Source: Candidatus Heimdallarchaeota archaeon | GTDB lineage: Archaea; Asgardarchaeota; Heimdallarchaeia; Heimdallarchaeales; Heimdallarchaeaceae | Assembly (NCBI GenBank): GCA_030603365.1 | Contig: JAUVXV010000001.1 | Coordinates: 192,001 to 256,000 of the forward strand | Reading direction: 5' to 3' | Length of the DNA: 64,000 bases | Notes under the pieces: generated by a model | What the model saw: only the letters and a program-made list of their open reading frames with translations | The model's database searches: none | What the model was told of the DNA's origin: nothing | In this document: piece after piece, positions 19,491 to 41,735 of the stretch | How positions within the stretch are numbered: the stretch's first letter is position 1 | Layout of the letters: each line of letters starts with the position of its first letter | Program-made: the position numbers and the translations under genes

Positions 19491-20147
19491 ATGCCTGTTC
19501 CTGATGATGTCTTAGCAAAAGAATATAGTCTTGTTATGGAAAGAGCTTATGCTTTTGAGCCTATAGATGGTGATTTAACAAGATGGAAAGGTTTTGTTCC
19601 CGTAATAACAGCTGATGGGGAAATATTTGTTGAAGCTTTAATGATTATTCCAAGTGATTATCCTTCATCTCCTCCAATAGTTCGTATTCTCAGTCCAATA
19701 ACACATCCAAATCTAACACAGGATAAAGTTCTAGAAATGAGGATGCTTGCACGATGGAGATCTAGTTATCATCTTTTCCAAGTAATAGTTGAAATGATTA
19801 GACTTTTCTCAAAAGTTCCTGCTCGTCTAGTAGATGAGAAACCACAGAGAATTGATCCAGAAGCTCATTTAAATCCTATAAAAGCTCAAGAAGAACAATT
19901 ATCCGTAATTCTTGAACAAAAGAAGAAAACACTTGCAGATATTAGAATTAAAAGGACTTCAGAGATATCAAACAGAGCTTTACAAAGAGAAAAGAAGATA
20001 CATCTTGAAGATGAGATTCTTGGAGTTGAAAATGAGCTTTTTGCAATTGAACAACAGTTTGAAGATTATGAAATTCCAAGTCATGAATTTGCAAAAAAAT
20101 ATTTTAATGTGAAGAAAAGGTTATATCTCTTAGAAGCAAAATCATGA
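19491..20147 (+). CDS. UEV (inactive E2) + coiled coil + Vps23/Vps37-like C-terminal helical hairpin (ESCRT-I-like)
   Basis: IPSDYPSSPP-V and HPN of the UBC fold but no Cys anywhere; C-terminal LFAIEQQFEDYEIPSHEFAKKYFNVKKRLYLL resembles the steadiness box/Mod(r) core. Confidence 0.75.
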   Translation: MPVPDDVLAKEYSLVMERAYAFEPIDGDLTRWKGFVPVITADGEIFVEALMIIPSDYPSSPPIVRILSPITHPNLTQDKVLEMRMLARWRSSYHLFQVIVEMIRLFSKVPARLVDEKPQRIDPEAHLNPIKAQEEQLSVILEQKKKTLADIRIKRTSEISNRALQREKKIHLEDEILGVENELFAIEQQFEDYEIPSHEFAKKYFNVKKRLYLLEAKS

Positions 20148-35479: not shown

Positions 35480-37765
35480 ATGATTGAGACATTGAACTTT
35501 GAAGAATTAAAAGGTGCCATTATGTCATTTATAGAAAGATTACAACTAAATCCAGAAGAAAAACAGGTTTATTCGTTACTTCTAGGTACAGGACAACTAA
35601 CAACTTTTGAAATTGCGGAATATGGGAAGCTCCACTTTTCTAAGGTTGAAACTGCTCTGGACTCTCTTGTTACAAAGAGAGCTGTAGGTGTTTCTGAAGG
35701 CTATATCGAGAAATACTTTGTTAGAATACCTTTGGAATATCTAGCTGAATCTAGTGATACTATTAATTCGAGTATCAAAGGATATTTAGAAAGCACAAAT
35801 AGCTTTATTCAGAGTAAGCAAACTGAATTTAATCAACTACGAACTAATCTGGTTAATCAGCTCAATACTTCTTTAACTCAAAAAGAAGAGGAGATAGATC
35901 AACAATACTCTAATGTTTCAGCAAATCTCCAATCTTTAACAAATCAAAGGAGAGAAAATCTAGAAAGCAAGTTAAATATGATAAAGAGTAAACTCACAAG
36001 TATTCAAGATGAAGAAAAACAATTCATAGAAAACTCAATTAAAGAAGTTTTGCAAAATAATATTGATACAATATCTGCTGCAAAATCTGTTGCTGAGAAT
36101 AGTTTAGAAAATATCAAACATTCTAATACAGAGACAATTGCGAATACTAATAGTACGATGGAGCAAAATATTAAACAACATACTGCAAGCATAGAAGAAA
36201 TTTCTCAATCTTTGCAGCCTAAAATTGAACTTCTAGAAGAAAATTATCTTAATCATCTTAATGAAATCACAGAGCTTATTCAACAGAATATTGATACAAC
36301 AAAAATTGATGTTAGAACGTTCAATCGAAGTCAAGCTGACAAATATGTAGGTTTTTCTACAGAAACCGTTAGAAAAACAGGGGAAACAATTGATAAAATC
36401 TCTGATACAGTTTCGGGTTCTTTAGGGGAGCTAAATACTTCACTTGAAATGATTCTAAATAGAAAAGTGGAAGAGTTATCACTCCAAGTTCAAGAAGCGG
36501 TTTCATCTCTGAATGAGAAAGTTGCTGAAATTAAACAGAGTTTATTTGATGAATTTGAACAGCAGAGGAATAATGCGATATCTGGTACTATCTCACAAAT
36601 TAAAGGAGATATGAACCTTAAATTTACAGATTTACAGAATAATGAACAAATTCAAAGAAACAACCTTGTTAGTGAGAGAGACATATTCTCACAAAAGCTT
36701 GAAACTCATTACAATGAGGCAATTCAAAGCTATAATGAGAAAATCACTGAAATTCAAGATACTGCTAGAACTAGGTTAAGCTCTTTTAAAGAAAATCTTA
36801 CAAACCAATTCAGTAGTATTGCATCAACAATTTTTGAAGATTTGAATAGCCATGTTCAGCAGTTCAAAGATCTATCTGATCAACTTAACGAGAATATACA
36901 ACAAACTCTAGGTTCTGAAATAGATGGTGTAAAAGAGAAATGGACGAATTTGTCAGCTCAAATAGAAACATTGACACAAGAAAACGAAACCAAAATCAAT
37001 GAAAAATACCAAGAAGTAATAAATCTAATTGGAGCATCAACAACAAGTATTACTACTGATTTGAGTAATTATTTGAACCAAACTCTAGAATCATCGCTTA
37101 AGGTTACCAATGATTTTGTCACAGCTTCAAAAACTCAGATAAGAGAGAGTAAAGATCAAATTGCTGGTAGTCTTAATGAGGAAGTAAATGCATCGACTAC
37201 TTTCTTAGAAGAAACTGGGGCTAAATATACAGATACAGCGAATTATCTTACTAGCTTAACAATGAAAATAAAGAATGATTTCAGGACTTTAGAAGCAACA
37301 ACTAGTGAAACTCCTGTTCCTCGTGTAGAAACAACATCAATAATTGGGCTTGAAGCTACCATTAGTCACATCGATAGAATAGTAAGAGCTGCAAAAAGAA
37401 GTGTGACAATCATGTCCCCAAAACCAGAATACATACCACTAGAGGCAGTAAAGTCCTTACCAACAACAGTGAGAGTTACAATAGTAACTTATCTTGATGA
37501 GCAAATGAATAGGGATTGGATAGATTCTGCTTATGCAGCGGAAGCAAATGTTGAAGTAAGAAAATTCAGAGATATGGGGACAGGTGTAGAGCTTCCACAA
37601 TTCATTGGTGCTGAGAGAGAAAATGAGGAAGTATTAATAGCAGCAACTGATGAGGCTACGCAACAAGTTGTTGGGATTTTAAGTAGTTCTACAGAATTTG
37701 CTAAACTTGTTTCATATATCATAATAGCTGATTTTGCAAGAGGAAGGTCAACACAAATAAAATAA
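35480..37765 (+). CDS. TrmB-like HTH + about 540-aa coiled coil + TrmB/PLD-like C-terminal domain
   Basis: N-terminal EEKQVYSLLL..GQLT..EIA wHTH; long heptad region; C-terminal IVRAAKRSVTIMSP...IGAERENEEVLIA. Confidence 0.75.
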   Translation: MIETLNFEELKGAIMSFIERLQLNPEEKQVYSLLLGTGQLTTFEIAEYGKLHFSKVETALDSLVTKRAVGVSEGYIEKYFVRIPLEYLAESSDTINSSIKGYLESTNSFIQSKQTEFNQLRTNLVNQLNTSLTQKEEEIDQQYSNVSANLQSLTNQRRENLESKLNMIKSKLTSIQDEEKQFIENSIKEVLQNNIDTISAAKSVAENSLENIKHSNTETIANTNSTMEQNIKQHTASIEEISQSLQPKIELLEENYLNHLNEITELIQQNIDTTKIDVRTFNRSQADKYVGFSTETVRKTGETIDKISDTVSGSLGELNTSLEMILNRKVEELSLQVQEAVSSLNEKVAEIKQSLFDEFEQQRNNAISGTISQIKGDMNLKFTDLQNNEQIQRNNLVSERDIFSQKLETHYNEAIQSYNEKITEIQDTARTRLSSFKENLTNQFSSIASTIFEDLNSHVQQFKDLSDQLNENIQQTLGSEIDGVKEKWTNLSAQIETLTQENETKINEKYQEVINLIGASTTSITTDLSNYLNQTLESSLKVTNDFVTASKTQIRESKDQIAGSLNEEVNASTTFLEETGAKYTDTANYLTSLTMKIKNDFRTLEATTSETPVPRVETTSIIGLEATISHIDRIVRAAKRSVTIMSPKPEYIPLEAVKSLPTTVRVTIVTYLDEQMNRDWIDSAYAAEANVEVRKFRDMGTGVELPQFIGAERENEEVLIAATDEATQQVVGILSSSTEFAKLVSYIIIADFARGRSTQIK

Positions 37766-38152: not shown

Positions 38153-38635
38153 CTAATGTCTGTATCTTCTAAATAATTTCTTCCAACCACTTACTTTTTC
38201 TCCTAGATTTATCATACCCATAGGTGCCGATTTAACTACCTCTAGGTCATAGAGAACTTTGTCAAAACCATCAAAAACTGCTGGTTCCGCATAACCTCGT
38301 CCAATTTCATCTTCATACATTTCTAGAAATGCTCCATAAGTCATATCTAGTTGTGCTTTCACTTCTTCATCTTTTTCTCTTAATGGTGTAGTGAAGACAA
38401 TTATTAAGTTTCGATCATTATCCACTTTGAAATTTAATTTCAAATCTGAGAAGATAACTGACTGAATTTCCTGTTGTCCATATGATTCTTTCGAAAATGC
38501 ATAAAGTGCAGCTAAAAATCCTGTTTGTAGAGTGTGATCTGGTCTCATTTTACAAGTTTCTCCTCCAAAACACCTACTATAGTATGGGATACCACTACTA
38601 TCAAATATAAATACATCATCTGCCAATTTAATCAC
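38153..38635 (-). CDS. Longin-like domain protein
   Basis: VFIFDSSGIPYYSR...GFLAALYAFSKE...IQSVIF-DLKLNF...LIIVF...final helix: longin topology typical of Asgard archaea. Confidence 0.72.
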   Translation of the reverse strand: MIKLADDVFIFDSSGIPYYSRCFGGETCKMRPDHTLQTGFLAALYAFSKESYGQQEIQSVIFSDLKLNFKVDNDRNLIIVFTTPLREKDEEVKAQLDMTYGAFLEMYEDEIGRGYAEPAVFDGFDKVLYDLEVVKSAPMGMINLGEKVSGWKKLFRRYRH

Positions 38636-38765: not shown

Positions 38766-41735
38766 ATGGACAATCTAGACTGCGTGTATCTGAAAACCCT
38801 TTCTTCAAAAGGTGGAGATAACCCTCTTTCAACAGTTCTTGTTGATGTAAATAAAGAACATTATATTGTAAACTTATGGTCTCCATGGCATGAGATTGGT
38901 GAGTTTCTCGCTCCTTATACCCCCTTAAAAATCTATAATGTCAATCAAATAACAGAGGATGATTCTACTTATTATTCTGCAGGTTCTAAATCAATAGTTG
39001 TAATTGATCCTGACATTCTACTTTATGCTACTTCCATAAACAGTGTTTCTTTCTGCCCTCGTAGTTATTATATCAATGAAATAATTGGTGAAACTTCTTC
39101 TCCATACATAGCAATAAGAGGTTCTATTGTTCATGATTGTCTTGGATTGGCAATAGCAAGTAAATCAAAACCTTCAGATATACTTCCTGAAGTGTTGGAT
39201 TCTTTTTCATTGCAGTATGAATATCATGGCTTCAAAAAAGAATCAGTTTATCAAGACGTTAGAAAAATGACCGAAAGTTTGGATTCTTTTGTTTCAACTC
39301 TAGGACCTAATTCTTTACCAGAGATGCTGTTCTTATCTCCTTTTTTTGGAATAAGAGGACGAATAGATCTCTTCAATGATGACCATATCTATGAACTGAA
39401 AACTGGAAAAGTATCTGAAGAACGAGATATTCGTTTTTCTGATCTCTTGCAGGTTGCATTGTATCGCTATGGTATTCAAGATAAAATAAGTGATGCAAAA
39501 CCACCAGATGGTACAGTAATATATGTGGGAACAAATGAAGCCGTATTCAAAACTGCGAGCCCAAATTGGGGATTACTACGTTATGGAATGGAACAAAGAA
39601 ATAAAGCCTATCGAATTTCTCATCTAGAATTTATTCCCCCAATTCTTCCTGAATCACAATTGAATAAATGTAGAAATTGTTTTGTTAAGCACTATTGTGC
39701 TCTCTTATGCTCTGGATTGAATCAAGAAAGACGATGTTCTACTTGCCCACATGATCAACTCTGTACTAAGAAATCTCTTCCTGATAATTTTCAAAATTTC
39801 TTTAATAAATTTTCCAAGTGGATAAGATACCAAAAAATTGAATCTTCTCGAAATATGACTGATTTATGGAAATTATCAGTTGAACAAAGAGTTGCGAAGG
39901 GAAAAGCTATACAGAATCTTAAACTTGAAAATAAAATACAAGATGGTATAACTACCAAACTACTCTTTTCATGTCAGAATGATAGCGAATTAAGAGAAGG
40001 AGATATAGTCGTTTTAAGTGATGGAAAACTAGTTCAGGGATTTGTCAGCACTGGAGTAATATCAAATGTTACAAATTCTTCCATTGAAATTGATACAAGA
40101 ACCATGCAAGGTTCAATTTCTGTGATAGACCAGTACTCTATTGATGTTGGCTATAGACGACAACAAAGAGGGTTATTCAATATTATATTCAAGAGAAATA
40201 ACTTCAGAGATTTAATAGTGAAGGAAGAAAAATCCATTGTTAAACCTGTACAAGGAAAATTTATTCCGACCAATCCTATACAAAATGAAGCGGTTAGCAA
40301 GATTCTCGGAACACAAAATTATAGTTTAATTCAAGGTCCAGCAGGAACTGGAAAAACATATGTTATTGCCAAAGCTGCAATTGAATTAGCTAAGCAAGGC
40401 GATAAGGTGCTTCTTACAGCCTTTACCAATAGAGCTGTTGACAATATCTGTAAATATCTATTAGAGAATCAATTTAAGAAATTCATAAGAGTGGGTTCTC
40501 TCCATTCAATACAACCTGAAATAAGAGATTATACGGTTAAAGCTTATAAAAAACAAAACCCTGAGAAATCAGCTAAGGAAATAATAGAAGAATTTTCAAT
40601 TATAGTCGCTACCACATCAACCATATCAAATCCAGTTTACGAAAGATTAGGAATACAAACCATAATAGTAGATGAAGCAAGTCAAATGACAGAACCTACA
40701 GTATTATCAGCTTTACTCGAAGGAAATAGATTCATTTTAGTGGGTGATCATAAACAACTTCCTCCAGTTGTTCAAAGTTCCAAAGCTCAAAAAGAAGGAA
40801 TGAGTATATCCTTATTTGAAAGATTAGCTGAAAAATCTCCTGCATCTGTTCATCTTCTCACACATCAATTTAGGATGAATGAAAAACTTGTAGAATTCTC
40901 TAACCAGCTTTTCTATGATAATAAACTAAAATCATTCGATGATTTGGTTAAGTTTCAAAATCTAATGGAATTAGCAAACTACACTGGAGACTATAGTAAC
41001 TTTAAGAATTCCTCAATTTACGACCCAAAGAGACCTTTGATTTATGTGCCTGTTACTGGCATTTTCAATCCAGAAAATAAAATTAATACTGAAGAGGTTA
41101 AAGCTTCCAGCGAAATAATCAATAAATTTATTGAATTAGGGATGAAAAGAGAACAAATTGGTGTTATCTGCCCATATAGAGGACAAGTAGGCGAACTTAG
41201 ACGCTCACTGCCTCCTAAAACTGTAGTTGATACTGTTGATCGGTTTCAAGGAAGCGATAGAGAATTGATAATATTATCTTTAACAGAAACCACATCAAGT
41301 AGTAATAGAGGATTTTCTGATGCAAGAAGATTGAATGTAGCAATAACTAGAGCTAAGAAAAAACTAGTTGTTGTTGGAGATTCACTAATTGATGAGAATG
41401 TGCTTGGGAAGTATATTGAGTATCTGAAAAACAATGCTGAAGTAATCTCAGAAAAAGAACCAAGGAAACCCTCCACTCCCAAAGAGACAACCATAATTGC
41501 AGAGAGTGTCTCAAAAATAGCAACATTCATGAAGAAAGTTATGATTAGGGGTCAGAAAACTGTGGATTCAAAGGATGATGCCTTGAAGTGTATGGTATGT
41601 TTTCAACCCGTGTATGAAAATGCAGTTGAATGCCCAGTTTGTGAGCATCTGTTTCACTTTGATCACCTCATTGCTTGGATTAAGGATAATGAAAGATGTC
41701 CTTATTGTAAAACTGTTCTCAGATTATTTGAATAA
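38766..41735 (+). CDS. Dna2-like Fe-S nuclease/SF1 helicase with C-terminal RING finger
   Basis: FCPR...CxxC-x5-C Fe-S ligands, GRID...ELKTG PD-(D/E)XK motif, GPAGTGKT, DEASQ, GDHKQLPP, TVDRFQG, RRLNVAITRAK; C-terminal CxxC...CPVC..FH..H..W...CPYC. ATG 38766 preferred over TTG 38709. Confidence 0.88.
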   Translation: MDNLDCVYLKTLSSKGGDNPLSTVLVDVNKEHYIVNLWSPWHEIGEFLAPYTPLKIYNVNQITEDDSTYYSAGSKSIVVIDPDILLYATSINSVSFCPRSYYINEIIGETSSPYIAIRGSIVHDCLGLAIASKSKPSDILPEVLDSFSLQYEYHGFKKESVYQDVRKMTESLDSFVSTLGPNSLPEMLFLSPFFGIRGRIDLFNDDHIYELKTGKVSEERDIRFSDLLQVALYRYGIQDKISDAKPPDGTVIYVGTNEAVFKTASPNWGLLRYGMEQRNKAYRISHLEFIPPILPESQLNKCRNCFVKHYCALLCSGLNQERRCSTCPHDQLCTKKSLPDNFQNFFNKFSKWIRYQKIESSRNMTDLWKLSVEQRVAKGKAIQNLKLENKIQDGITTKLLFSCQNDSELREGDIVVLSDGKLVQGFVSTGVISNVTNSSIEIDTRTMQGSISVIDQYSIDVGYRRQQRGLFNIIFKRNNFRDLIVKEEKSIVKPVQGKFIPTNPIQNEAVSKILGTQNYSLIQGPAGTGKTYVIAKAAIELAKQGDKVLLTAFTNRAVDNICKYLLENQFKKFIRVGSLHSIQPEIRDYTVKAYKKQNPEKSAKEIIEEFSIIVATTSTISNPVYERLGIQTIIVDEASQMTEPTVLSALLEGNRFILVGDHKQLPPVVQSSKAQKEGMSISLFERLAEKSPASVHLLTHQFRMNEKLVEFSNQLFYDNKLKSFDDLVKFQNLMELANYTGDYSNFKNSSIYDPKRPLIYVPVTGIFNPENKINTEEVKASSEIINKFIELGMKREQIGVICPYRGQVGELRRSLPPKTVVDTVDRFQGSDRELIILSLTETTSSSNRGFSDARRLNVAITRAKKKLVVVGDSLIDENVLGKYIEYLKNNAEVISEKEPRKPSTPKETTIIAESVSKIATFMKKVMIRGQKTVDSKDDALKCMVCFQPVYENAVECPVCEHLFHFDHLIAWIKDNERCPYCKTVLRLFE

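Follow-up and report, generated by a model that had tools for sequence, protein, structure and literature searches.

A Dna2-type nuclease-helicase with a predicted C-terminal RING-variant finger in Heimdallarchaeia

Ubiquitin ligases combined with a nucleic acid motor are known from eukaryotes. In Rad5, HLTF, and SHPRH, a RING is inserted into an SF2 motor, and the E3 is part of the same chain. ZNFX1 is an SF1 helicase whose RING-like E3 activity increases in the presence of nucleic acid (10.1101/2025.09.05.674436). For archaea, E3 activity was shown for small, operon-encoded RING proteins, namely srfp of Caldiarchaeum (PMC5654768) and a Helarchaeial RING E3 (10.1101/2023.07.25.550441). The literature found on ubiquitin in Asgard archaea concerns ESCRT and membrane sorting.

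Gene and nuclease-helicase core

The gene analyzed here encodes a Dna2-type protein with a C-terminal RING-type finger, herein referred to as Dna2-RING. It lies in the window, i.e., the whole analyzed stretch of 64,000 nucleotides, in a genome of 3.65 Mb (GC 33%) belonging to the Heimdallarchaeaceae. The genus of this genome includes AB_125, and the family includes Ca. Heimdallarchaeum aukensis and Ca. Heimdallarchaeum endolithica. The reading frame, uninterrupted by stops, runs from the ATG at 38766 to the TAA at 41735 and contains the following features.

38766..41735, plus strand: Dna2-RING gene (P0001), 989 aa, single copy, apparently monocistronic
38766..39005, plus strand: all-beta domain at the N-terminus (residues 1-80), where Dna2 has its OB domain; AlphaFold model with six strands, alignment with mouse Dna2
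39006..39701, plus strand: PD-(D/E)XK nuclease with Fe-S staple; residues invariant in the four-family alignment and aligned with eukaryotic Dna2
39708..39764, plus strand: second Cys site (C315, C324, C327, C333), invariant within the family
39771..40250, plus strand: stalk helix and beta-barrel (1B) domain (residues 336-495); AlphaFold model, Foldseek match to 5EAN
40251..41435, plus strand: Upf1-like SF1B helicase domains 1A/2A, motifs all intact
41436..41585, plus strand: variable, partly disordered linker (residues 891-940), by family identity and AlphaFold pLDDT
41589..41711, plus strand: C4H2C2 RING-variant finger; Pfam, PDB sequence matches, fold searches, and alignment

Pfam assigned residues 30-178 to Dna2 (5e-12), residues 88-333 to PDDEXK_1 (5e-11), and the region up to residue 873 to AAA_11/AAA_12 (to 4e-44). 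The AlphaFold model of the 989-aa protein (pLDDT 84, pTM 0.78) was matched by Foldseek to mouse Dna2 (5EAN, 5EAX, and 5EAW; E ~1e-56, TM 0.74-0.76, ~1030 columns), far ahead of IGHMBP2 or Upf1. The domain order and fold of Dna2 (OB, nuclease, stalk/barrel, 1A, 2A) were recovered by Pfam, AlphaFold, and Foldseek. The nuclease residues H123, D201, E210, K212, and Q229 correspond to H164, D278, E299, K301, and Q314 of mouse Dna2, and the cysteines C97, C302, C305, and C311 (one plus three), predicted from the sequence to form the Fe-S staple, match the staple of eukaryotic Dna2. All five nuclease residues and all four staple cysteines are invariant over four families (alignment A3). The helicase part contains GPAGTGKT, DEASQ, GDHKQLPP, QFRM, TVDRFQG, and RLNVAITRAK. 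The pattern of a PIP box was not matched in the protein. The full Dna2 architecture described in the original prediction is borne out by the Pfam domains, the fold match to mouse Dna2, and the residues of the nuclease, the Fe-S staple, and the helicase. By sequence and model, Dna2-RING is confirmed as having the complete architecture of a Dna2 nuclease-helicase.

The second cysteine cluster, previously noted as C-x8-CSTC-x5-C, is real and its motif is exact. In C315-x8-C324-x2-C327-x5-C333, the C-x2-C-x5-C spacing repeats that of the Fe-S staple, and the site may hold Zn or a second Fe-S cluster. Three of the RING-bearing families have it, as do some prokaryotic Dna2s lacking the RING, and it is absent from the Hodarchaeales copies and from the examined eukaryotic Dna2s. 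Since it occurs in RING-less proteins and is missing from the RING-bearing ones of Hodarchaeales, this site is independent of the RING. In one Heimdallarchaeia family whose Dna2-like proteins have no RING (L054-L060), the usual C-x2-C-x5-C position of the staple is missing, and three cysteines are found further downstream.

The Dna2-RING gene is flanked by a divergent longin-domain gene upstream and a convergent ABC solute-binding gene downstream. One copy per genome was found in 31/31 Heimdallarchaeaceae genomes, at a constant site whose housekeeping surroundings include genes for the RFC large subunit, a PRTase, and an ABC binding protein. In each of the other families, the locus is likewise constant and surrounded by housekeeping genes. 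No neighbors or operon conserved between families were seen at these loci, no ubiquitin gene adjoins the locus, and a promoter scan at the gene remained at chance level. The longin-domain protein (window 38153-38635, minus strand; 160 aa; Fuz_longin_1, E 1e-4) is present in part of the family only. Another gene, kept upstream of Dna2-RING in 24 Heimdallarchaeaceae loci, encodes a protein of 761 aa (window 35480-37765, plus strand) with a TrmB-like HTH at the N-terminus, a long coiled coil, and a globular C-terminal domain. In the Hodarchaeales loci (L168-L183), a conserved gene of ~600 aa comes after the Dna2-RING gene; judged only by eye, the N-terminus of its product is similar to a DNA methyltransferase.

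The C-terminal finger and the ubiquitin system of the genome

The linker falls below pLDDT 50 at residues 897-905 and 927-935 of the AlphaFold model, and identity within the family is 34% for the linker vs. 69% for the RING. The finger has the motif C942-x2-C945-x10-C956-x2-C959-x4-H964-x2-H967-x3-W971-x6-C978-x2-C981. Scanned alone, the last 71 aa passed the Pfam cut-off for zf-RING_2 (30.3 vs. 27.3 bits). The best PDB sequence matches of this tail were RING-H2 E3s, e.g., Arkadia, EL5, RNF126, HRD1, and RLIM. The 50 fold matches shown per search were all RING/U-box-type domains or complexes containing such domains, the best of them being VIA, with a Z of 7.8 and an rmsd of 1.9 for 59 aligned residues. 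A feature search of the ESM Atlas with the tail gave no usable match. In the predicted fold, the finger has the eight Zn ligands and the central helix of a RING, with the Trp in this helix, i.e., at the RING position. The ligand order is invariantly C4-H2-C2, not the C3H2C3 of RING-H2, and H961 is not conserved. With both sequence and fold matches to RING/U-box domains and no PHD among those listed, the C-terminal RING of the original prediction is upheld, and the motif quoted there is exact.

The 37 aligned finger copies, from three families, all share the eight ligands and W971 without exception; position 944 is hydrophobic in all 37, and position 982 is K/R in 27/37. The E2-contact positions of the finger are V944, W971, P979, and K982, the latter located after the last Cys. 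The Caldiarchaeum RING E3 requires I30, W58, and R69 (PMC5654768), to which V944, W971, and K982 correspond. In the Hodarchaeales copies (10/37), P979 is replaced by V and K982 by Q. Three families have the Trp without exception, and Heimdallarchaeaceae and the fourth family retain Ile/Val, Pro, and Lys. One Dna2-RING lineage (L031, G010:C4; cluster P0217-P0219) has no Trp-bearing helix and retains all eight ligands, being a natural control for E2 binding. Loss of the E2 in this lineage was considered and ruled out, the E2 gene being there but cut by a contig end.

The genome contains a gene group for ubiquitin, an E1, and a UEV protein (contig C1, near 330 kb), a second cluster with the order E1-Ubl-RING-JAB-E2 (contig C17, 21-27 kb), and a gene for a solo E2 (C1, 144 kb; C1:144264-144731). 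Both the solo E2 and that of C17 have the catalytic Cys as well as the PF/PY and TPA/SPA loops. The ubiquitin system ascribed earlier to Asgard archaea is thus encoded in the same genome, with ubiquitin, E1s, two Cys-bearing E2s, and a JAB protease. Genes for RPA and PCNA are also present. Co-occurrence of Dna2-RING with E2 is non-discriminating, as E2-family matches were found in 83/83 genomes of the class. Lys164 of PCNA was rejected as substrate evidence: it aligns with the yeast lysine, yet it is shared by PCNAs of Thermococcales and is therefore uninformative. The window also encodes a 218-aa protein (19491-20147, plus strand) with an E2 fold, no catalytic Cys, and a coiled tail, i.e., a UEV-Vps23-type ESCRT/ubiquitin adaptor.

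Complex prediction for the finger and the solo E2 gave 0.52, a weak score, vs. 0.01 for the best control. The runs agree in at least 97% of contacts, with a partner pLDDT of at least 81. The mark was reached by 58/80 solved pairs and 2/110 mismatched pairs, with just 7 of the solved pairs and both passing mismatches scoring 0.60 or less. Because RING-E2 is a textbook pair, the score may mirror only likeness to solved structures.

In total, a profile search of the genome with the finger found 13 proteins including Dna2-RING, the C-terminus being the place of the finger in nearly all of them, and the finger is therefore a common C-terminal tail in this organism. Membrane helices were predicted in 10/13 of these proteins. 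The RING of the E1-Ubl-JAB-E2 cluster belongs to the same finger family. No enzyme domains were found in the ten other finger proteins scanned with Pfam, leaving Dna2 as the sole enzyme found to bear the finger. The cluster RING (C17:24902-25744, L224) is membrane-anchored and has Glu at the sixth Zn ligand. A soluble protein of 513 aa (C1:534043-535584, L217), with repeated winged-helix-like segments (by eye) and, at its end, a zinc ribbon plus this type of RING, is a second candidate non-membrane E3.

Distribution and ancestry of the fusion

A survey of Asgard Dna2 homologues, which had been proposed together with the original prediction, covered 400 Asgard genomes, incomplete ones included. 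Besides this genome, a full-length RING-type Dna2 was found in 30/30 genomes of Heimdallarchaeaceae, in one single-genome family, in another family of the same order (10/12), and in Hodarchaeales (11/22). It was found in 0/3 genomes of a three-genome family and in none of the 317 genomes outside the class, incomplete genomes being among those counted. The fusion thus occurs in four Heimdallarchaeia families, where the finger terminates 49/49 orthologue loci reaching the C-terminus; one locus is split by a stop codon. Since all 30 further Heimdallarchaeaceae genomes, as well as three additional families, show the same architecture, Dna2-RING is neither a chance nor an assembly join, and an origin by artefact or read-through is ruled out by the retention of the fusion in 49 loci. 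The Ca. Heimdallarchaeum orthologues UJG39660.1 and UJG42313.1 have no annotation beyond AAA ATPase or DNA helicase. A longer Dna2-like protein without the RING is found in the Promethearchaeum/Lokiarchaeum family and in two other families of the class. Among the best 150 library-wide representatives, all finger-bearing full-length proteins are in the RING clade, and the eukaryotic and other prokaryotic rows are without the finger. When fish Dna2 served as the query, the matches were almost exclusively fish sequences.

Trees were built from the nuclease-helicase core, with the RING columns left out and IGHMBP2-like helicases as the root. The RING-bearing proteins group with RING-less Dna2-like proteins of haloarchaeal type, of bathyarchaea, and of bacteria (97/93, LG+G4; SH-aLRT 96 in a quick mixture tree), and eukaryotic Dna2 falls outside this group. 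Forcing the RING-bearing proteins and eukaryotes into one clade was rejected (AU p=0.028, LG+G4, 36 rows), which is moderate evidence because of the single model, small sample, and long branches. Eukaryotic Dna2 was previously reported to appear related to some Asgard homologues in a paper whose text contains neither "RING" nor "ubiquitin" (PMC12680538). As the tree places the RING-bearing proteins among RING-less prokaryotic Dna2s and not beside eukaryotes, the fusion looks like an invention of the Heimdall lineage rather than an ancestor of eukaryotic Dna2. The "pre-eukaryotic link" suggested originally, if taken as ancestry, is weakened by this grouping and by the AU result.

Proposed function and comparison with known systems

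Taken together, sequence and models suggest that Dna2-RING is probably a housekeeping Dna2 with its own DNA-tethered RING E3 module. A 5' ssDNA tail (Okazaki flap, resected break, or stalled fork) would, as in mouse Dna2, thread the nuclease tunnel, be moved by the SF1B motor, and be cleaved at the PD-(D/E)XK site with its Fe-S staple. The complete conservation of fold and catalytic residues makes such Dna2-like processing of 5' ssDNA very likely. The finger, tethered to helicase domain 2A by ~50 flexible residues and holding two Zn in a cross-brace, would dock a ubiquitin-loaded E2 via V944, W971, and P979, with K982 as the linchpin. From its predicted fold and its residues, we infer that the finger quite likely binds two Zn and docks E2~Ub. 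Ubiquitin could be transferred to Dna2 itself or to proteins on the same ssDNA, RPA being the obvious candidate, for removal or turnover. The fusion may have arisen once, or at most twice, in Heimdallarchaeia by capture of a RING module used on many C-termini. A doubtful, if conceivable, extension is that ssDNA binding activates the E3, which would then ubiquitylate RPA or further proteins of the fork during resection. Of the coupling of resection to ubiquitin ligation in one polypeptide, as first proposed, the presence of Dna2 and RING in one chain stands, and the ligase role is a prediction.

RINGs of GATOR2/SEA, RAG1, cellulose synthase, and arenavirus Z, whose roles are partly or mainly structural, occur among the fold neighbors of the finger. 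The finger could likewise be a RING-fold non-ligase, i.e., a Zn-stabilized binding or dimerization module that places Dna2 on a partner, e.g., another RING protein. Two lineages have lost the Pro, linchpin, or Trp and kept the Zn ligands, the C4H2C2 order is non-canonical, and the E2 prediction is weak, all in line with such a module. Its probability is appreciable but rather low in view of the E2-contact residues, with the Trp invariant in three families and the others kept in Heimdallarchaeaceae and the fourth family, and of a finger family that includes the ubiquitin-operon RING. A PHD or other non-RING zinc finger is highly improbable. The spacing C-x2-C-x4-H-x2-(H/C) is common to PHD and RINGv fingers, and a single weak PHD-like Pfam score was obtained (E 0.13); however, a PHD has C4HC3 ligands and a Trp two residues before ligand 7, whereas here ligand 6 is His and the Trp lies four residues after it in the central helix, and PHD is absent from the sequence and fold matches listed.

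Dna2-RING could also be an antiviral or anti-plasmid effector resembling ZNFX1, which would sense foreign nucleic acid by means of its SF1B motor, cut it, and ubiquitylate the nucleic acid or itself. ZNFX1 provides a precedent (10.1101/2025.09.05.674436), the helicase part of Dna2-RING scores against MkoA of Mokosh, and the distribution is patchy (11/22 in Hodarchaeales, 0/3 in one family). This reading is nevertheless quite improbable: a single copy is present in 31/31 genomes of the family, at a constant site among housekeeping genes, and the MkoA match is confined to the helicase, whereas the Dna2 fold extends along the entire length. The full-length match, partner genes, and defence-island context of Mokosh were not found for Dna2-RING.

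As a housekeeping Dna2 with its own E3 module, Dna2-RING hints at ubiquitin control of DNA processing in archaea, a possibility that the fusion suggests and does not prove. A RING fixed on a DNA-processing enzyme in four families offers a single-polypeptide test of whether true ubiquitin takes part in genome maintenance in archaea. If an ssDNA-activated E3 is confirmed, the archaeal class nearest to eukaryotes would have a prokaryotic DNA-repair signal based on ubiquitin.

Among known systems, eukaryotic Dna2 (mouse, 5EAN/5EAW/5EAX; PMC4716839) shares with Dna2-RING the order of OB, Fe-S nuclease, stalk/barrel, and 1A/2A and all catalytic residues. The identity is ~23%, the examined eukaryotic sequences have neither the RING nor the second Cys site, and the two are not sister clades in the tree. 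The RING-less prokaryotic Dna2-like proteins (haloarchaeal-type, Bathyarchaeota-labelled, and bacterial) have the same core, are closest in the tree, and in some cases have the second Cys site; unlike Dna2-RING, they stop soon after helicase motif VI. The RING-less Dna2-like proteins of Loki/Promethearchaeum form a separate type with the same nuclease-helicase core. The archaeal RING E3s (Caldiarchaeum srfp, PMC5654768; Helarchaeial, 10.1101/2023.07.25.550441) resemble the finger in the RING fold, in the I/W/R(K) set of E2 contacts and in the genomic E1-E2-Ub; srfp is C3H2C3, whereas the finger is C4H2C2, is fused to an enzyme, and has a predicted ligase role. ZNFX1 likewise combines a nucleic acid motor and an E3 in one chain, but it works on RNA and lacks a Dna2 nuclease. 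The likeness of ZNFX1 and of the Rad5-type proteins to Dna2-RING is an analogy and not orthology. No description of a Dna2-RING fusion was found in the literature on Asgard archaea, Dna2, and RING, a scope that does not include the 2021 asCOG paper. Eukaryotic helicase-E3 fusions and active archaeal RING E3s are already known, and the fusion of a RING to Dna2 itself is apparently new.
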